Shown here piece by piece: positions 20,088 through 25,346 of a DNA stretch of 35,072 nt (positions are counted from its first letter, which is position 1; each line of letters starts with the position of its first letter). Below the pieces are notes generated by a model that saw only the letters and a program-made list of their open reading frames with translations, was not told the origin of the DNA and ran no database searches. Location of the stretch: sequence record CP103806.1; one strand, 5' to 3'. Source of the DNA: Clostridioides phage Hain-Saunders-2022a. The position numbers were made by a program, and so were the translations under genes.

Positions 20088-22325
20088 TTAAATACAGATT
20101 TCTAATTGTTCTGTTGACTCTGCTTCTTTTTCTTTTTCAATTTTAAATCCTATATCAAATTTATTGTTTAAAAATGCTTTTTCAATTTCATCTAATCGGT
20201 TTAACAACTTTTGTTTTCTTGTGCTTATAGCATTTCTTAAACTTAAATCATTTTTTTCCAATTTTAAATCCTTTTCTATATCCTCTATTTTTATATATCT
20301 TTCAATCTTGTTTATTCGCATCCTGTCATTGTCTATAAATTCAATATCGGGCTTATTGTTCTTGTAATATGAATAATTTTCTAACGCTTCAAAGTTTCTG
20401 TGTTGCTTGACTTTCACTACAAATATATTTTTTAAGATAGTTCCTAGTTTAGTGGTTGTTAACTTCCAATCATCTCCTAGAATTATACCTAAATCGTTAC
20501 TTAACTCTTGTAAATTGCATTCTGTATAAGCTGTTCCAACACCAAATAATTTGTCTATGTAGTTATATGCAACAACTTCTATTAAGTTATCATTTAGCAA
20601 ATTTGGATGTTCTTCTTTTAACTCTCTGTAGATGAGATTATTTATTTTATTAAATATATTACCTCTCTTATTGTTGCCCATGTTGGCAAGTTTCCAGGAT
20701 AACCCTAAACTATAGTTATGTTCAAGTACATATTTAGAAAATAGTTCAATTTCGTTGTAACAGTCCGCTTTGTCGATTAAATAATCTATATTATACTTAA
20801 TGTGTGCCTGCTTATAATCGTCCTCTGTTATTTTATTATAATTCATATAGGTCATTAGGTTAAAATCCTTAGAACCCCTTTTAATTTGCTCGTAGCCAAC
20901 TAGATATTTTTTGTTTTCTTCTAAAGTTTTTAATGTAGCTTTCTTAATTTCTTTTAAAACTTCTTTGTATTCTTTTATTTGCTGTGTTGTTTCTTGACTT
21001 TGTTCCTCTATATTTTCTATTTTTACATCTTTGAAATATTCTTCTAAAAGCACTTTTAAGCTTGCGATACTTCTACTATCGTAATATCTCGAGTATGTGT
21101 TACTTATAATGAATAATTTATCTATTTCATAGCATTTATTTTTAATAGAGTAATATACATTAGAGTCAAGGCTGAAAGGCATAAGGTCTATTCCGACTGT
21201 TTCAAATCCCGTTACCCTTTTGCTGTTTAATTCGTTATATAACTCTTTTAATTTGTTTGCTCTTTTAAAATTGATTTTAATTATGTCATTAACTTTGTAG
21301 ACTTTATTGTTTCCTTCTGTTTCTTTGAAATTGTTAAAAATATGCACTCTCACACGTTTCAAATCTCTAAATCTTGCAACATACTGTTTTATTGTCGCAG
21401 GGTCTTTGAACCCAACTATCACAATATCAGTTATGTCTTTATTTTTTATATTGACACCTGCCAGAATTGTTGTTGTATTTAGTAGTACTTCATATTCTTT
21501 CATGTCTGAGTGTTGTATTATTCTTTTGTACAATTCGCTTTTAATCTTAATATCTGCATGAACAATATCACTTTTTTTTGTTGTTAATTCATCTATATAT
21601 TTTAAATCTTTTTTACTGTTATAAAGAACAGCGCTATTTTTAGATTTGTTAAGAATTTCTATTATTTTATCTTTATTTATATTGTCATAAAGCCTTACAT
21701 CATATTTAGTATTTTTTTCTTTTATATACTCTATTATGTAATCATAAATTTCAAATTCCAGCTTAGTTGGTGTTGCTGTTATATCTATTCTGCCTTTACA
21801 TTTATTTACTACATTGTTGAGATTTTTTATTGCTTTTTTCCTATAAGAATCTGTGTAGGTCTGATGTATTTCATCAACAACAATTATGTAATCACTTAAA
21901 TCTATGTTTAATAATTGTTCTGTTTTATCCCATGTCATGACTGCTAGGTTTCCAGTTTTTAATGCTTTTGTCGCAGGAAGTAAGTCATATGCACCTGGTA
22001 CATCATATTCCTTCATAGCCTGTTCTACATTCGCACTGTTTGGCAATATAAATAATGCTTTTGTATTCATTTTTTTAAGCGCATTTATGAAACTATAACT
22101 TTTACCTGTTCCAGTTTCTGCAATTAACAGAACCGTCTCTCCTGCTCCTGCTCTTGCTATTGCGTTATATATTCCACTCTTTTTTTCATCTATATATTTT
22201 TTTATTTTATGCGTTTCTTGTCTTTCAAATTTTGCGTAATTTTCTATCTCTCCTAGCGCTCTTTCTAAGTCGCAATCATTTTCAAATAATTTATCTATAT
22301 TATTTTTCTTAACTTTTTCCATCAT
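20088..22325 (-). CDS. SF2 helicase (DEAD/DEAH-like ATPase core, ~350 aa) fused to a ~400-aa K/N/Y-rich C-terminal domain of unknown function
   Basis: Walker A (AETGTGKS), DEIH box (VVDEIH) and a motif-VI-like QYVARFRD. RBS AAGGGGGA. It stands alone between the repeat array and the accessory island. Confidence 0.85.
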   Translation of the reverse strand: MMEKVKKNNIDKLFENDCDLERALGEIENYAKFERQETHKIKKYIDEKKSGIYNAIARAGAGETVLLIAETGTGKSYSFINALKKMNTKALFILPNSANVEQAMKEYDVPGAYDLLPATKALKTGNLAVMTWDKTEQLLNIDLSDYIIVVDEIHQTYTDSYRKKAIKNLNNVVNKCKGRIDITATPTKLEFEIYDYIIEYIKEKNTKYDVRLYDNINKDKIIEILNKSKNSAVLYNSKKDLKYIDELTTKKSDIVHADIKIKSELYKRIIQHSDMKEYEVLLNTTTILAGVNIKNKDITDIVIVGFKDPATIKQYVARFRDLKRVRVHIFNNFKETEGNNKVYKVNDIIKINFKRANKLKELYNELNSKRVTGFETVGIDLMPFSLDSNVYYSIKNKCYEIDKLFIISNTYSRYYDSRSIASLKVLLEEYFKDVKIENIEEQSQETTQQIKEYKEVLKEIKKATLKTLEENKKYLVGYEQIKRGSKDFNLMTYMNYNKITEDDYKQAHIKYNIDYLIDKADCYNEIELFSKYVLEHNYSLGLSWKLANMGNNKRGNIFNKINNLIYRELKEEHPNLLNDNLIEVVAYNYIDKLFGVGTAYTECNLQELSNDLGIILGDDWKLTTTKLGTILKNIFVVKVKQHRNFEALENYSYYKNNKPDIEFIDNDRMRINKIERYIKIEDIEKDLKLEKNDLSLRNAISTRKQKLLNRLDEIEKAFLNNKFDIGFKIEKEKEAESTEQLEICI

Positions 22326-22410
22326 TAAATCCCCCTTATATTGCAGGGAAAATTAAAACTTATTTTCTGTTTTTTAGTATAATTTTACTATTAAAAATAC
22401 ACTAAAAAAC

Positions 22411-22439
22411 TTGATTTCTATTGCCTTATACTCTATAAT
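22411..22439 (+). promoter_or_regulatory. near-consensus sigma-A promoter TTGATT-N17-TATAAT
   Basis: TTGATT at 22411-22416, an exact 17-nt spacer, TATAAT at 22434-22439. It is divergent from the helicase gene start. Confidence 0.6.
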
Positions 22440-22446
22440 AAGAATA

Positions 22447-22557
22447 TAGGAATAAGAAAATAAGGATATTTGCGTATCCTAAAATAAGGGTCTAATTTCC
22501 CTGGGTTCGAGGAATACTATTGTTTGACGGCAAGTGAGTATTCCTCTTTTATTTTTT
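22447..22557 (+). ncRNA. candidate ~110-nt small RNA with no ORF, two hairpins and an intrinsic terminator
   Basis: It runs from the promoter above to the terminator stem GAGGAATACT (22510-22519) / AGTATTCCTC (22537-22546) followed by TTTTATTTTTTT. There is an internal hairpin AGGATAtttgcgTATCCT. No start codon gives an ORF longer than 8 codons. Confidence 0.35.
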
Positions 22558-22691
22558 TGTATATTTAAAAATCCAATTAAAAACATTCTTTTTTATGATT
22601 ATAATTATAGCACATTTAAATTATAAAAAAATATACTCTTTTTGAAAATAAATTATATTTTAAAAATATATTTTCTAAAAAACTGTATTTT

Positions 22692-22724
22692 AAAAGACTT
22701 AGTACACTTACTAAGTCTTTTTTA
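22692..22724. terminator. bidirectional terminator (AAAAGACTTAGTA cact TACTAAGTCTTTT)
   Basis: Perfect 13-bp stem with A and T runs on both sides. Confidence 0.65.
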
Positions 22725-22839
22725 TATGTAAATATATGTTATAATAATTTTAGCAAGAGAAGCAATCTATATTCAAAAAAGAGTGGAGTCTATACACGAA
22801 AGATTATCCTCCCAACGCTACGAGGGGAGGTGATGTGAT

Positions 22840-22998
22840 ATGGATAATTTTTTACTTAATGTATTAGCTGGTGTTATAGCTAGTTTAATATTCTATCTAA
22901 TTAGTAAATTATTTAGAAACGTAAAAAACCACTCTAAGTGTCCAGCAAAGAGTGGTTGGGAACTTAATCTAAAAATTAAGTTCAAAAAGTCTAGATAA
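22840..22998 (+). CDS. 52-aa membrane peptide, type-I toxin-like (MDNFLLNVLAGVIASLIFYLISKLFRNVKNHSKCPAKSGWELNLKIKFKKSR)
   Basis: Unlisted ORF with a strong RBS (GAGGGGAGGTGA). The RBS is embedded in a hairpin (CCTCCC at 22808-22813 pairs with GGGAGG at 22824-22830). There is an extended -10 TGtTATAAT at about 22740-22748. The protein has an N-terminal TM helix and a Lys-rich tail. Confidence 0.6.
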   Translation: MDNFLLNVLAGVIASLIFYLISKLFRNVKNHSKCPAKSGWELNLKIKFKKSR

Positions 22999-23052
22999 TT
23001 TTTTACTTTAGACGAAAACTACACTCTTATGCCTAGAATATAGTTCTCTTGC
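22925..23052 (-). ncRNA. candidate antisense RNA convergent on the 3' half of the peptide gene (putative antitoxin)
   Basis: Minus-strand extended -10 TGATATAAT (reverse complement of 23059-23067) inside direct repeat A. A minus-strand terminator lies inside the ORF (stem AACCACTCT/AGAGTGGTT at 22928-22960, followed by a U-run). Confidence 0.3.
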
Positions 23053-23056
23053 TTTT

Positions 23057-23103
23057 ATTATATCACAATTTCTTAAAAAAGATACGAATTTATATCATTT
23101 CCA
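23057..23103. repeat. direct repeat A (47 bp, 44/47 identical to repeat B at 23258-23304). It carries the minus-strand extended -10 promoter.
   Basis: TTATTATATCACAATTTCTTAAAAAAGATACGAATTTATATCATTTC compared with TTATTGTATCACAATTCTTTAAAAAAGATACGAATTTATATCATTTC. Confidence 0.8.
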
Positions 23104-23150
23104 GTATCCTGTCTTTTTTATTTTTATCAAAATTTATTTTAAATAATAAA

Positions 23151-23253
23151 GTAAAAAACTACTCAGACGCCAATAAGAGTAGTTCAAAATAATTAATTTT
23201 TAATCTGAATTGGAAATAACTGCTCCTGTATAAAGTAAACCCTTATTTCCTTA
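23151..23253 (-). ncRNA. candidate ~100-nt minus-strand sRNA, running from the repeat-B promoter to the hairpin AACTACTC/GAGTAGTT (23157-23184) plus a U-run
   Basis: Repeat B carries the same TGATATAAT element. A minus-strand terminator lies 100 nt downstream. Confidence 0.25.
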
Positions 23254-23257
23254 TTTT

Positions 23258-23304
23258 TTATTGTATCACAATTCTTTAAAAAAGATACGAATTTATATCA
23301 TTTC
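23258..23304. repeat. direct repeat B (second copy of the promoter-bearing repeat)
   Basis: See repeat A. Confidence 0.8.
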
Positions 23305-23402
23305 AATATACCAAATTTTTCTAAAAAAGTAGGGCAAAACCATTGTTTTTATCGTCACGTTATGCTATAATTATATTATAGAAAGGAGGTGACAAAGAGA
23401 AA

Positions 23403-23531
23403 ATGAGTAGACTAGAAAGAAAGCAAAAAAATAGAGAGAAAAGACTCAGCAAAGTTAAAATCATTCTCTCTATTCTGAGTATTTTAGTAAGCTTGATAGA
23501 TAGACTTATCAAACTACTAAAAGACTTGTAA
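23403..23531 (+). CDS. 42-aa peptide (MSRLERKQKNREKRLSKVKIILSILSILVSLIDRLIKLLKDL) with a basic N-terminus and a hydrophobic or amphipathic C-terminus
   Basis: Unlisted ORF with its own promoter: TTGTTT (23344-23349), a 17-nt spacer, TATAAT (23367-23372). It has a strong RBS (AAAGGAGGTGA) and a downstream hairpin (CTAAGAAGGAA/TTCCTTCTTAG at 23540-23567). Confidence 0.5.
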   Translation: MSRLERKQKNREKRLSKVKIILSILSILVSLIDRLIKLLKDL

Positions 23532-23608
23532 GTTTTAAGCTAAGAAGGAAGTGCAATTCCTTCTTAGTTGACTTCTTTCTTAAATTATAACACATTTTCT
23601 TGAAATGT

Positions 23609-23776
23609 ATGAGTAAAAAAGTATATAAAACATGCGTTGCTGTAATTATTTTTACAATAGTTTTAGACGTAATTCTTTTAGTAAAAGATTTTAGTATAAG
23701 TAATATAGCTGGATTGCTTATAAGTTTTTTACTACTAACATTTTTTTATTGGCAACGTAAAAAAGGTGAGTGGTAG
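23609..23776 (+). CDS. 55-aa two-helix membrane peptide (MSKKVYKTCVAVIIFTIVLDVILLVKDFSISNIAGLLISFLLLTFFYWQRKKGEW)
   Basis: Unlisted ORF that ends at the start of the AbrB-like gene. No clear RBS. Confidence 0.3.
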   Translation: MSKKVYKTCVAVIIFTIVLDVILLVKDFSISNIAGLLISFLLLTFFYWQRKKGEW

Positions 23777-23778
23777 TT

Positions 23779-23958
23779 TTGAAAGAAACAAGGATTTTGA
23801 ATATTAATTTTAACAAAAGCGGTTGTGGCTCTGTAAGTACCAGGCTGAATATACCTATTAAATTTTTACGAGAACTAGGCATAACCGAAAGCGACAGGAG
23901 TGTCGAAGTGACTTTAAATGGCGAGGAAATAATAATTAAAAAGGCTAAGAATAAATAA
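23779..23958 (+). CDS. AbrB/MazE/SpoVT-family swapped-hairpin DNA-binding protein
   Basis: RLNIPIKFLRELGITESDRSVEVTLNGEEIIIKKAK closely parallels the AbrB N-domain (RVVIPIELRRTLGIAEKDALEIYVDDEKIILKKYK). The start is probably TTG at 23779, 9 nt after AGGTGAG. The ORF track begins at the GTG at 23770. Confidence 0.75.
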   Translation: MKETRILNINFNKSGCGSVSTRLNIPIKFLRELGITESDRSVEVTLNGEEIIIKKAKNK

Positions 23959-24004
23959 CTTTTCTCTAAAAAGAGGGTTAATATTTCTTAGCCTTCTTTT
24001 TTAA

Positions 24005-24180
24005 AAAATACGATATTGTAAGCACAATATTTATATATTTTAAATACAATGTATGATGCATGATTAAAATATTGTATTTATATTGTAAAAATATTGTTTA
24101 TAAAATATTTTTACATTTCTATATATAATATTAAAATATTGTTGCAATATTGTAAAAATAATACTACAATAACATTATAA
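24005..24180. promoter_or_regulatory. array of at least 7 ATATTGT / ACAATAT motifs (palindromes ATATTGTaagcACAATAT and AATATTGttgCAATATT) upstream of parA. Candidate parS centromere and par operator.
   Basis: The motif copies are at about 24013, 24024, 24068, 24080, 24090, 24136 and 24146. Confidence 0.55.
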
Positions 24181-24206
24181 TAATATAAAAATGAGGTGTC
24201 TAAAAA

Positions 24207-25016
24207 ATGGCTGATACAAAATTAATTGTATTTTTCAATACAAAAGGCGGGATATATAAGACGACTACAACTATTATGACGGCATACGAACTTGCAAAAG
24301 ATAAAGATAAAAAAATTCTTCTTTGGGACTTAGATCAACAGGCAAATTTAACTCAATATGTTTATAAAACTAATCACGATAAAAAGACTACATTAGATAT
24401 GTTAAAAGACGTTAGGGCTGAGGAAATTATTATTAAATCTTTTAATAAATCTTACCCAAATATAGATTTAATAGCTTCCGACATTTTGATGGCTAAATTT
24501 GAAAGAGAATTATTTTCTTTCCCAGCTCGTGAACAATTTTTGGCTCGCTGGTATATGAATAATTTTGATGTATTAAGTGAATATGATTATATATTTTGCG
24601 ACTTATCTCCTAAATATGATTTGACGGCTATGAATGCTTTATTTTTAGCTGATAGTGTAGTTATTTTAATTAAAGATAAAAATGTTTCTAGCTTAAGAGG
24701 GGCAGATTATTTTAAGCAACTTTGGGATATAGATAGAAGTTATTTTAAAAAAGAGGATAATATAAAAGCAACAGTTTTAGTCGGCTTCGAAAAGAAAAGA
24801 ACGGCGGTTAGCAACACATTTGATTCTTACTTAAAAGAGTTTAATGTTTTAAGGAATATGATGTTAAATACATATATAAGAAAAAATGAGTTTATTGAGC
24901 AAGCATTAATGAAAAAATTATCTTTAACAGATTATACAAAAATAACTAAAGAGCATTTTAGTAGACAAGAGTTTACTAGCATGTTAGAAGAATTAAAAGA
25001 AAGAGGTGTGTTATAG
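24207..25016 (+). CDS. parA: ParA/Soj-family partition ATPase (deviant Walker A)
   Basis: KGGIYKTTTT deviant Walker A near the N-terminus. 269 aa. RBS AATGAGGTG. Confidence 0.9.
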   Translation: MADTKLIVFFNTKGGIYKTTTTIMTAYELAKDKDKKILLWDLDQQANLTQYVYKTNHDKKTTLDMLKDVRAEEIIIKSFNKSYPNIDLIASDILMAKFERELFSFPAREQFLARWYMNNFDVLSEYDYIFCDLSPKYDLTAMNALFLADSVVILIKDKNVSSLRGADYFKQLWDIDRSYFKKEDNIKATVLVGFEKKRTAVSNTFDSYLKEFNVLRNMMLNTYIRKNEFIEQALMKKLSLTDYTKITKEHFSRQEFTSMLEELKERGVL

Positions 25017-25346
25017 ATGCCAGTATTCAACAAAGACCTTTTAGAAGAAAAAGAAAAGCCACTTTTGAAAAGTGGTACAGTTGGGCAGGAAAATATTATT
25101 TCTACGGATAGCGATAAAACATTAAGTATATATAATCTAGTTAATAAGAAAAGTAAAAAAGTAACTATGAGTGCAACACTAGACAAAGAGCTTGTAGACA
25201 AGTTGAAGTCTCTTGCAATAGACTTAGATAGTGATGTAAGTAAAATATTAAGTGATATGTTAACAAAGCTTTTATATGATGTAGATGTAAAAGAAGAAAA
25301 TTTAATCGCTTATAATGAAAGAAGAAAGACAAAGAATAATAAGTGA
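25017..25346 (+). CDS. small ribbon-helix-helix centromere-binding protein (ParG/ParB-like partner of ParA)
   Basis: 109-aa ORF that starts at the parA stop codon. The C-terminal RHH-like segment is KKVTMSATLDKELVDKLKSLAIDLDSDVSKILSDMLTKLL. Confidence 0.65.
   Translation: MPVFNKDLLEEKEKPLLKSGTVGQENIISTDSDKTLSIYNLVNKKSKKVTMSATLDKELVDKLKSLAIDLDSDVSKILSDMLTKLLYDVDVKEENLIAYNERRKTKNNK

Follow-up and report, generated by a model that had tools for sequence, protein, structure and literature searches.

What is encoded by the DNA that separates the helicase gene from the parA partition genes in Clostridioides phage Hain-Saunders-2022a? The window that we analyzed, 35,072 bp in length, is the entire contig of this phiCD38-2/phiCD111-like phage-plasmid. 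The locus lies in its plasmid-maintenance region, with genes for ParA and an Arc-like partition protein downstream and small membrane-protein genes without an assigned role on its flanks. A sequence-only reading had proposed a type I toxin–antitoxin (TA) module at this position. We consider it very probable that this locus is such a module, and that it belongs to the CD_typeI_toxin/RCd family. It is a real but ordinary addition to a type I TA family already described in C. difficile phages. The toxin side of the module comprises the following elements.

22692–22726, plus strand: intrinsic terminator with a 13-bp stem and a T-run, directly 5' of the toxin promoter (terminator scan).
22737–22745, plus strand: toxin promoter with extended −10 element TGTTATAAT and no good −35 element (pattern search); predicted transcription start site (TSS) at ~22752.
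22752–23053, plus strand: predicted toxin mRNA of ~300 nt, consisting of an 88-nt 5'UTR, the ORF and a ~55-nt 3'UTR that ends at the antitoxin start.
22788–22846, plus strand: hairpin sequestering the Shine–Dalgarno sequence (SD) and the start codon; its outer stem is formed by GUCUAUACAC and the AUG region.
22840–22998, plus strand: toxin ORF of 52 amino acids, with an N-terminal transmembrane (TM) helix (residues 4–22) and a Lys-rich tail.

The encoded peptide has the architecture that the sequence-only reading described. Its top 19-residue Kyte–Doolittle window covers residues 4–22 with a mean of 2.28, and the 30-residue tail contains 10 Lys or Arg residues versus 1 Asp or Glu. The peptide has the build of the family: between 30 and 56 residues, a conserved hydrophobic N-terminal part, and a C-terminus that is rich in Lys and positively charged. 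Searched against type I toxin families, as had been suggested, it passed the NCBIfam model NF047374 ("CD_typeI_toxin") with 88.5 bits (cut-off 60, E = 2.8e-25), and residues 1–52 aligned with profile positions 1–51 of 51. A curated equivalog, NF047374 represents the type I toxin of C. difficile. The peptide also matches phrog_738, and its homologues carry the name "type I toxin-antitoxin system toxin". A Pfam search of the peptide returned nothing above threshold and only a sub-threshold match to FeoB_associated. The ORF had been taken to be unannotated, but the source record lists it as the hypothetical protein NYR90_20220.

Both promoters of the module were located by way of their extended −10 pattern, and the TSS positions assume a start 7 nt past the −10 element. 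A sigma-70 promoter scan picked up neither of them, because neither has a recognizable −35 element. At the toxin promoter, the motif TGnTATAAT recurs at equal distance in all 19 family loci. The terminator immediately upstream likely insulates the toxin gene against read-through, and its stem is also found in aligned Leicestervirus relatives. The transcript ends that we deduce from the promoter position and from homology would delimit a highly structured mRNA (MFE −91.2 kcal/mol, z = −7.0; no shuffle equalled it). The SD GGAGGTGA occupies positions 22826–22833, with the end of GGAGG 9 nt 5' of the ATG. The proposal that this strong SD is locked in a hairpin stood up to closer analysis: the anti-SD CCTCCC (22808–22813) pairs with GGGAGG (22825–22830) across an 11-nt loop, and ensemble calculations on the toxin mRNA gave pairing probabilities of 1.00 for the SD and 0.99 for the AUG. 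Both elements are as completely sequestered in the free mRNA as in an mRNA in which the antitoxin-bound region is blocked. An anti-SD is present in every family member, differing in sequence and loop. The predicted transcript thus combines the features expected of a toxin mRNA in this family, namely a length of ~300 nt, a 5'UTR of 83–88 nt and a sequestered ribosome-binding site.

The same reading had placed an antisense RNA of ~125 nt across the 3' end of the toxin mRNA. Our analysis predicts the same overlap and a somewhat larger size of ~130 nt, based on the following elements.

22921–23050, minus strand: predicted antitoxin RNA of ~130 nt with SL1, SL2, SL3 and a terminator (covariance model).
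22923–22957, minus strand: intrinsic terminator of the antitoxin inside the toxin ORF, with a 9-bp stem (22927–22935/22949–22957), a 13-nt loop and a U6 run.
22960–22983, both RNAs: SL3 palindrome GAACTTAATCTAAAAATTAAGTTC in the ORF, at codons ELNLKIKF.
23057–23065, minus strand: antitoxin promoter with extended −10 element TGATATAAT, in copy 1 of repeat A (23053–23101); predicted TSS at ~23050.

A covariance model built on nine relatives, with the window excluded, matched positions 22921–23050 of the minus strand over its full length (117.5 bits, E = 4.5e-21). A weak match of this model at 612–741 proved to be merely a bidirectional terminator. The predicted RNA is fully complementary to toxin codons 28–52 and the 3'UTR. 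It folds with a z-score of −5.3, which no shuffle equalled, and SL1 is stable on the minus strand only (−15.6 vs −4.4 kcal/mol). The terminator hairpin, formed by the arms AACCACTCT (22927–22935) and AGAGTGGTT (22949–22957), was overlooked by our terminator scan because the loop limit was set to 8 nt. The A6 tract at 22923–22928 of the plus strand provides the U-run on the minus strand, and no T-run follows the stem on the plus strand. Stem and U-run, already recognized in the sequence-only reading, are kept in 19 of 19 loci; RNAalifold detected compensatory changes in two of the nine pairs as well as U·G pairs that can form on the minus strand only. The U-run ends 81 nt into the ORF, which equals the derived offset of the RCd10 3' end in CD0956.2.

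Toxin homologues occur in 63 phage records, and in-frame indels are found only in the hairpin loop. The linker KCPA of the window toxin, which is two residues longer than in the closest relatives, also falls in this loop; another 52-residue variant, P0003, is known. The invariant family motifs MDNFL...KIKFKK are present, and the synonymous and non-synonymous counts against close relatives are too few at this divergence to demonstrate purifying selection. SL3, a candidate kissing loop, differs from its phiCD111 equivalent (GAATTTGAT...ATCAAATTC) by two compensatory double changes in the alignment. Repeat A does carry the minus-strand extended −10 element assigned to it (TGATATAAT, read from 23065 to 23057), but its two copies (23053–23101 and 23256–23304, 94% identical) are 49 nt long rather than 47. 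In 18 of 19 loci, this −10 element either is unchanged or keeps the TGn (TGCTATAAT, TGGTATAAT). The motif TGNTATAAT is more frequent than chance would have it, with 10 copies in the window vs 4.6 expected, and 5 of the 10 fall within 22604–23592. Facing TGnTATAAT promoters, the SD/AUG hairpin, the hairpin inside the ORF and the U-run that follows it on the minus strand are all retained across the 19 family loci. In silico, the locus contains a convergent antisense gene with its own sigma-A promoter, a Rho-independent terminator and an overlap of ~130 nt.

The locus is a member of the family by sequence, and conservation or covariation extends to every RNA element. NF047374, homology to gp33 of phiCD38-2 and the conserved, covarying antisense elements thus bear out the reading as a type I TA module. 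Rfam contains no family that reaches the gathering score anywhere in the window, and none with E ≤ 1 in 22300–24250; three weak Rfam matches outside this interval are chance matches.

Could the ORF instead code for a small phage membrane protein of a common sort, resembling holins or superinfection-exclusion proteins, with no antisense RNA and with a minus-strand hairpin and −10 element that are incidental or part of mRNA structure? AT-rich DNA is rich in extended −10 motifs, of which 4.6 would be expected in a window of this kind, and in the window clade the stability of the in-ORF hairpin is near-equal on both strands (−12.2 vs −13.6 kcal/mol). Nevertheless, we find this explanation barely credible, since the U-run and SL1 folding are specific to the minus strand, as are the G·U pairs in the terminators of relatives, since the spacing of the antitoxin −10 element is constant in 18 of the 19 loci, and since equivalent antisense RNAs have been mapped in relatives and shown to rescue. 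A decaying or silenced copy, in which recent ancestry preserves the motifs around a non-functional toxin or antitoxin, is also quite improbable. Decay does occur in this region, as a plainly truncated second module demonstrates, the 90% cluster of the toxin holds one contig only, and the linker insertion is unusual. On the other hand, the ORF is intact and its SD is strong, the two promoters are exact matches to the consensus, and none of the four antitoxin stems is disrupted. Where the locus differs from relatives, the changes in SL3 are compensatory and those in the terminator loop are in-frame, and a dead antitoxin beside an intact toxin would be lethal.

A real module might also serve mainly another purpose, such as abortive infection, exclusion of competing phages, or growth control linked to stress or biofilm formation, roles that have been considered for chromosomal copies beside CRISPR arrays. 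Family members adjoin CRISPR arrays, with SigB and biofilm signals regulating both together (PMC5961336), TA systems may persist as selfish elements without benefit to the host (PMC7699646), and small membrane-protein genes without assigned function are neighbors of the module. We judge this alternative unlikely, given that a location beside parA, on a phage-plasmid outside the chromosome, is what maintenance would lead one to expect, that four family modules have been demonstrated experimentally to stabilize plasmids and prophages (PMC7699646), and that no PADLOC defence model matches the peptide. Such roles could replace maintenance or supplement it.

How would a maintenance module of type I work at this locus? 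We infer the transcript ends, the toxicity, the rescue by the antitoxin and the maintenance role. In family experiments, the toxin localizes to the membrane fraction, and its overexpression causes growth arrest from which the cognate antitoxin rescues (PMC5961336, PMC7699646). Antitoxin half-lives are ~8 min as compared with ~89 min for the mRNA, and family modules raise plasmid retention from 1% to 22–64%. At the window locus, transcription from a sigma-A promoter of the extended −10 type (22737–22745) would yield a ~300-nt mRNA, in which a local hairpin would hide the SD and the AUG. With its first ~40 nt paired with the 3'UTR, this mRNA would be closed, and therefore probably long-lived and poorly translated. 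The facing extended −10 promoter (23065 to 23057) would produce a ~130-nt RNA that stops at the terminator inside the toxin ORF. Perfectly complementary to the final ~130 nt of the mRNA, this RNA would not be able to reach the ribosome-binding site. Most likely, in the manner demonstrated for its relatives, it would pair through loop–loop contacts that extend to a full duplex, which RNase III, known to cut the toxin–antitoxin duplex in this family (PMC5961336), and other RNases would destroy. Upon loss of the phage-plasmid, the short-lived antitoxin would vanish first, the stable mRNA would be translated, and the membrane peptide would arrest or kill the cell (post-segregational killing).

The predicted closure of the mRNA involves two arms.

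22752–22789, plus strand: 5' arm of the panhandle, with H1 AGCAAGAGAA (22752–22761), H2 CTATATTC (22767–22774) and H3 AGAGTGGAGT (22780–22789) (MFE structure).
23022–23053, plus strand: 3' panhandle arm, within the 3'UTR, with CACTCTT (23022–23028), GAATATAG (23036–23043) and TTCTCTTGCT (23044–23053).

The duplex between the 5' 45 nt and the 3'UTR has a predicted energy of −31 kcal/mol (z −6.3). Since MAFFT alignments of complete mRNAs and of the full set of antitoxins left the terminal boxes and the distant clade out of register, we assessed this pairing by per-sequence RNAduplex, a matrix of cognate versus non-cognate arms, and anchored pair tables, leaving out of the count the columns past the H1 core, where homology is unreliable. 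With these methods, the duplex was found in 19 of 19 family loci at energies between −31 and −45 kcal/mol, the arms of each clade pairing with their own cognates, and the pair tables provide support from compensatory changes and G·U pairs. Strand asymmetry is clear in two distant clades and absent in the window clade (−31.1 vs −32.7 kcal/mol), where the panhandle may therefore reflect a DNA-level or antisense-strand feature. Throughout the family, the first ~40 nt (boxes AGCAAGAGAA / CUAUAUUC / AGAGUGGAGU) may pair with the 3'UTR of the same mRNA. Because the antitoxin begins with a 5' domain that nearly duplicates the toxin leader, antitoxin and leader would compete for the 3'UTR. If true, this covarying 5'–3' closure could account for the stability of toxin mRNA, including its very long half-life, and for blunt, mirror-image RACE ends. 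It would be a hok-like fold-back, unusual in that the antitoxin attacks the 3' arm. A covarying 5'UTR–3'UTR panhandle that closes a toxin mRNA is not described in the literature that we searched.

An orphan antitoxin-like RNA gene (23151–23268) adjoins the module; the literature searched contains no description of it. Phage-plasmids of this kind carry one intact module together with a complete orphan antitoxin of the other toxin type (short or long), in a reciprocal fashion. Short-type modules, with a 35-residue toxin, occur in phiCD146 and on plasmid NZ_CP037845.1; among the intact ones searched, none reached 90% identity to the orphan antitoxin (best 84%). The reciprocal pattern could serve as an anti-addiction device that counters rival elements, and orphan antitoxins alongside intact modules could bear on phage-plasmid competition. 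Taken together, a closed panhandle mRNA throughout the C. difficile type I family and anti-addiction orphan antitoxins form a tentative proposal that we hold to be rather doubtful as a whole. Nearby, a second, unrelated TA-like unit (23363–23592) surrounds a 42-residue ORF in the same convergent-antisense layout. The literature searched does not describe this unit either, and the ORF could represent an undescribed toxin family.

Since the family, its role in retaining prophages and plasmids of C. difficile, and the phiCD38-2 counterpart are already published, our finding is mainly a correction of the annotation: the label of NYR90_20220 ought to be changed to "type I toxin", and the record needs a new entry for the antitoxin RNA gene, which it does not annotate. 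It also shows that a type I TA module was recognized correctly from raw sequence.

The closest known systems are phiCD38-2 gp33, phiCD111 PHICD111_20033, phiCD6356_34 and phiMMP04 gp31, direct counterparts with ~81–83% amino acid and ~83–88% DNA identity. All four likewise lie between a helicase gene and parA, and the same orphan RNA gene comes next. The protein gp33, to which the window toxin is ~82% identical, has been named a homologue of type I TA toxins in the 1.9-kb parA region (Peltier et al. 2020, PMC7699646), an assignment that was itself made in silico. The window toxin has 52 residues as opposed to 50 in these counterparts, and its terminator loop has 13 nt instead of 7. Given the two compensatory double substitutions in SL3, the antitoxins may not cross-react.

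Established C. difficile type I modules include CD0956.2/RCd10, CD2907.1/RCd9 and CD2517.1/RCd8 (Maikova et al. 2018) as well as CD0977.1/RCd11 and others (Peltier et al. 2020). RACE mapping of CD0956.2 and CD2517.1 gave leaders of 83 and 88 nt, mRNAs of 298 and 306 nt, and antitoxins of 134 and 140 nt (PMC5961336), the latter being the size range of RCd8–10; the 3' end of the CD0956.2 mRNA coincides with the RCd10 TSS. In strain 630, CD0956.2/RCd10 occupies coordinates 1124042–1124339. The geometry predicted here (88-nt leader, ~300-nt mRNA, ~130-nt antitoxin) matches both CD2517.1/RCd8 and CD0956.2/RCd10. The RCd modules share with the window copy the toxin family, the 50–53-residue TM and Lys-rich build, the convergent layout, the sizes, the sequestered ribosome-binding site, an antitoxin terminator ~81 nt into the ORF, and phage or prophage carriers. 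Unlike them, the window copy resides on an extrachromosomal phage-plasmid beside parA rather than beside a CRISPR array, is longer in its hairpin loop and linker (KCPA), and shares only 58% identity with the strain-630 family protein Q18BT8, whose locus (1.65 Mb in LN614756) is not among the three RACE-mapped ones.

The txpA/RatA and bsrG/SR4 systems of Bacillus subtilis feature RNase III-dependent decay, a sequestered SD and a convergent antisense RNA. Like the window module, they pair a small prophage membrane toxin with a 3'-overlapping antisense RNA. The likeness drawn in the sequence-only reading holds for this 3'-end overlap and does not extend to membership: Pfam and Rfam gave no match to TxpA, BsrG, RatA or SR4, and a sequence relationship is absent. 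The resemblance is an analogy. This comparison also draws on a review (PMC6563280).

Compared with hok/Sok of plasmid R1 and aapA1/IsoA1 of Helicobacter pylori, the window module has an unrelated toxin (Pfam returned no Hok match) and an antitoxin that covers the 3' end of the mRNA. In hok/Sok and aapA1/IsoA1, the antitoxin targets the 5' leader, and 3' trimming activates the mRNA. More than 80 nt separate the AUG from the window antitoxin, which lies on its 3' side, away from any 5' leader or mok-like target. Long-distance 5'–3' closure keeps the hok and aapA1 mRNAs stable and untranslated. The folding of AapA1 mRNA is covered in PMC6563280. The panhandle predicted here would close the toxin mRNA by 5'–3' pairing in a similar way, a resemblance to hok/Sok that is mechanistic only.

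The 52-aa peptide reported in the sequence-only reading is indeed encoded by an ORF at 22840-22998 (+), with hydrophobic residues 4-22 as the proposed transmembrane helix and a Lys-rich tail containing 10 K/R against 1 D/E. The ORF had been described as unannotated, but the source record does list 22840-22998, merely as a hypothetical protein. A search against type I toxin families gave a full-length match of the peptide to NF047374 "CD_typeI_toxin", a curated NCBIfam equivalog, scoring 88.5 bits (cut-off 60). Its database neighbours bear the name "type I toxin-antitoxin system toxin". By tblastn, 63 C. difficile phage records hold relatives of this toxin; identity is ~81-83% to phiCD111 PHICD111_20033, phiCD38-2 gp33, phiCD6356_34 and phiMMP04 gp31, and 58% to the strain-630 protein Q18BT8. 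For the clade of the window's toxin, the type I assignment is in silico only. Since Peltier et al. 2020 reported that all functional C. difficile phages have toxin homologues and, for phiCD38-2, that its 1.9-kb parA region "also carried a TA (gp33)" (PMC7699646), the family and a direct counterpart of this gene are already published. The module belongs to this known family, which supports its earlier interpretation as a type I toxin-antitoxin system.

The window spans the full 35,072-bp contig of the phage. Its region 22300-23600 matches solely C. difficile phages and phage-like plasmids (78-90% identity), with phiCD111 and phiCD38-2 (genus Leicestervirus) as the top matches. The phage-plasmid is extrachromosomal, and the module occupies its maintenance region, set among the following features:
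20088-22325, minus strand, DNase/helicase-like gene (745 aa), bordering the module on one side
22692-22721, terminator just upstream of the toxin gene, which it would protect against read-through
24207-25346, ParA and Arc-like partition pair, bordering the module on the other side

For comparison, the module was taken from 19 family loci representing three clades. A TGnTATAAT box lies 81-94 nt 5' of the toxin ATG in all 19, and a facing box 49-65 nt past the toxin stop codon in 18. In the window, the facing box is the extended -10 TGATATAAT (minus strand, 23065->23057) that had been placed in repeat A, whose first copy bears the predicted antitoxin promoter. This repeat is present as claimed (23053-23101 and 23256-23304, 94% identical), but it measures 49 rather than 47 nt. 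The sequence of the proposed minus-strand terminator within the ORF is also present: AACCACTCT (22927-35) pairs with AGAGTGGTT (22949-57) across a 13-nt loop, and the A6 that precedes the hairpin on the plus strand provides a U-run on the minus strand only. Among family loci the hairpin is maintained through compensatory changes (AACCGCTC/GAGCGGTT in pCD5401_3, at the price of a His-to-Arg change; AGCCACTC/GAGTGGCT in HGP05 and others), while its loop measures 13, 7 or 4 nt owing to in-frame indels. Some of the hairpin's pairs in distant relatives are U·G when read as minus-strand RNA; on the plus strand, A·C mismatches would result. SL1, the first stem-loop of the predicted antitoxin, contains three G·U pairs and is stable on the minus strand alone (-15.6 vs -4.4 kcal/mol in the window). 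SL3 is a palindrome within the codons for ELNLKIKF, with two compensatory double substitutions relative to phiCD111. The predicted antisense RNA folds with -40.3 kcal/mol (z -5.3 vs shuffled controls), and a covariance model made from nine relatives, excluding the window, matched 22921-23050 (minus) over its full length with 117.5 bits (E 4.5e-21).

The predicted toxin mRNA (22752-23062) likewise folds far more stably than shuffled controls (-91.2 kcal/mol, z -7.0). The very strong Shine-Dalgarno sequence GGAGGTGA was found at 22826-33, together with the proposed lock between CCTCCC (22808-13) and GGGAGG (22825-30), 11 nt apart. In the free mRNA the predicted pairing probability of this sequence and the AUG is ~1.0, and both are still predicted to be paired when the 130 nt covered by the antitoxin are blocked. 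In the MFE structure, three boxes of the leader pair with three boxes of the 3'UTR, so closing the mRNA into a panhandle:
H1, AGCAAGAGAA (22752-61) with TTCTCTTGCT (23044-53)
H2, CTATATTC (22767-74) with GAATATAG (23036-43)
H3, AGAGTG (22780-85, within the AGAGTGGAGT box 22780-89) with CACTCT (23022-27)

Closure is predicted in 19/19 loci (-31 to -45 kcal/mol, z -6 to -12). A matrix of 5' segments against 3'UTRs shows that pairing is specific block by block: clade C 5' segments reach about -41 to -45 kcal/mol with their own 3'UTRs and about -20 with those of clade A. The H1 boxes covary (AGCAAGAGAA/TTCTCTTGCT, AGCAAGAAGA/TCTTCTTGCT, AGCAAGGAA/TTCCTTGCT), and H3 extends to 14-15 bp in other clades, where the toxin strand has numerous G·U pairs in it. 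For the clade to which the window belongs, the predicted panhandle pairing is just as good on the opposite strand. A consequence of the panhandle is that the convergent transcription units open with near-identical sequences, so that the 5' domain of the predicted antitoxin mimics the toxin leader. Family papers describe toxin mRNAs as "highly structured" with a sequestered ribosome-binding site, given as data not shown; the searched literature makes no mention of a 5'-3' interaction, though figures or supplements might hold one.

The predicted antitoxin begins >80 nt downstream of the toxin AUG and would therefore be unable to act at the ribosome-binding site. By analogy with the family, for which duplex formation followed by RNase III cleavage is described (PMC5961336), antitoxin and toxin mRNA would form a duplex, probably started by loop-loop contacts, that RNase III would then cleave. 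The module very probably mediates post-segregational killing and so stabilises the phage-plasmid, because its relatives combine a labile antitoxin (~8 min) with a very stable toxin mRNA (~89 min), locate the toxin in the membrane fraction and raise plasmid retention from 1% to 22-64%. The main alternative is a role in defence or stress.

Copy 2 of repeat A (23256-23304) is associated with an orphan antitoxin-like RNA gene (23151-23268, minus). Its extended -10 TGATACAAT (23268->23260) lies inside the repeat, and its terminator consists of AACTACTC (23157-64) paired to GAGTAGTT (23177-84) and a U-run behind the stem; phiCD111 and phiCD38-2 have AACCACTC/GAGTGGTT, a compensatory C-G/T-A change. 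The covariance model matches this gene (E 0.004), opposite which lies nothing but a toxin C-terminal remnant (..KVKNYSDANKSSSK). The unit shares ~80% identity with the antitoxin side of short-variant modules that are intact in phiCD146 (L006, 1560-2110), AR1074-1 (L008) and plasmid pZ1322PCD0028-3 (L011) and encode a 35-aa toxin MVINFLLSILAGVISAFIYDKIKNHSNANKSGLRK; no intact partner module was found at >=90% identity. In these three, the short module is followed by a long-toxin remnant that begins exactly at the antitoxin terminator and retains the whole antitoxin gene, reciprocal to the window. This arrangement suggests recombination via repeat A, and it is possible that orphan antitoxins are retained.

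Further small elements surround the module. The window has ten TGNTATAAT extended -10 boxes, and five of them fall within 1 kb (22604-23592) and alternate in strand (22604 (-), 22737 (+), 23057 (-), 23363 (+), 23584 (-)), a pattern suggesting that small convergent transcription units are densely packed here. One such unit (23363-23592) contains a 42-aa ORF (23403-23531, MSRLERKQKNREKRLSKVKIILSILSILVSLIDRLIKLLKDL; phiCD38-2 gp32 homologue, phrog_5134) in the same convergent-antisense layout as the toxin module. Its plus promoter TGCTATAAT (23363-71) faces the minus promoter TGTTATAAT (23592->23584), a minus-strand terminator lies in the ORF (23431-40 with 23464-73, plus U7), and the predicted ~154-nt antisense RNA folds with z -6.0. 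Pairing is possible between its Shine-Dalgarno sequence and the 3' segment ACTTCTTTCT, and the minus promoter block is unchanged in relatives with considerably diverged protein sequence. The peptide has no family annotation, and the unit may be a second, unrelated and undescribed type I-like module. Upstream of the toxin module, a candidate small RNA gene (22411-22560, +), faced by box 22604-12 (-), has a TTGATT-17-TATAAT promoter (22411-39) and a structured transcript (~22446-22560) with a long terminator stem (22509-47) and T-run. It is without an Rfam match; RNAalifold on four sequences (the window and three relatives) gave 37 pairs, 6 of them compensatory. It shares the motif AAATAAGGG with the orphan RNA, as inverted repeats on the module's flanks. 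Just upstream of parA (23600-23958) are two genes with a 7-nt overlap: one encodes a protein of 58 aa with two TM helices (phrog_11497 "membrane protein"), the other an AbrB/MazE-like protein of 62 aa (PF04014 sub-threshold, E 0.0011; phrog_2329). The covariance model also gave a weak match at 612-741 (19.4 bits, E 0.17), but the sequence there (AAAAAGCAATTACC...GGTAGTTGCTTTTTT) is just a terminator that works in both directions and no toxin-antitoxin remnant.

Only three items might add to published knowledge: the predicted panhandle, the gp32-type unit and the orphan antitoxin genes. The module itself can be compared with relatives whose transcript ends were mapped by RACE (Maikova et al. 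2018, PMC5961336).

Transcripts of the window module and of RACE-mapped relatives
CD2517.1 / RCd8: toxin mRNA 306 nt, 5'UTR 88 nt, antitoxin 140 nt (RACE, PMC5961336)
CD0956.2 / RCd10: toxin mRNA 298 nt, 5'UTR 83 nt, antitoxin 134 nt (RACE, PMC5961336)
Window module: toxin mRNA ~300 nt, 5'UTR 88 nt, antitoxin ~130 nt (predicted from promoter positions)

RCd10 starts at the exact 3' end of the CD0956.2 mRNA (1124339; PMC5961336), and RCd10 itself ends at a distance of 164 nt from the toxin transcription start, which is 81 nt into the CD0956.2 ORF. In the window, the minus-strand U-run (22921) likewise ends 81 nt into the toxin ORF.
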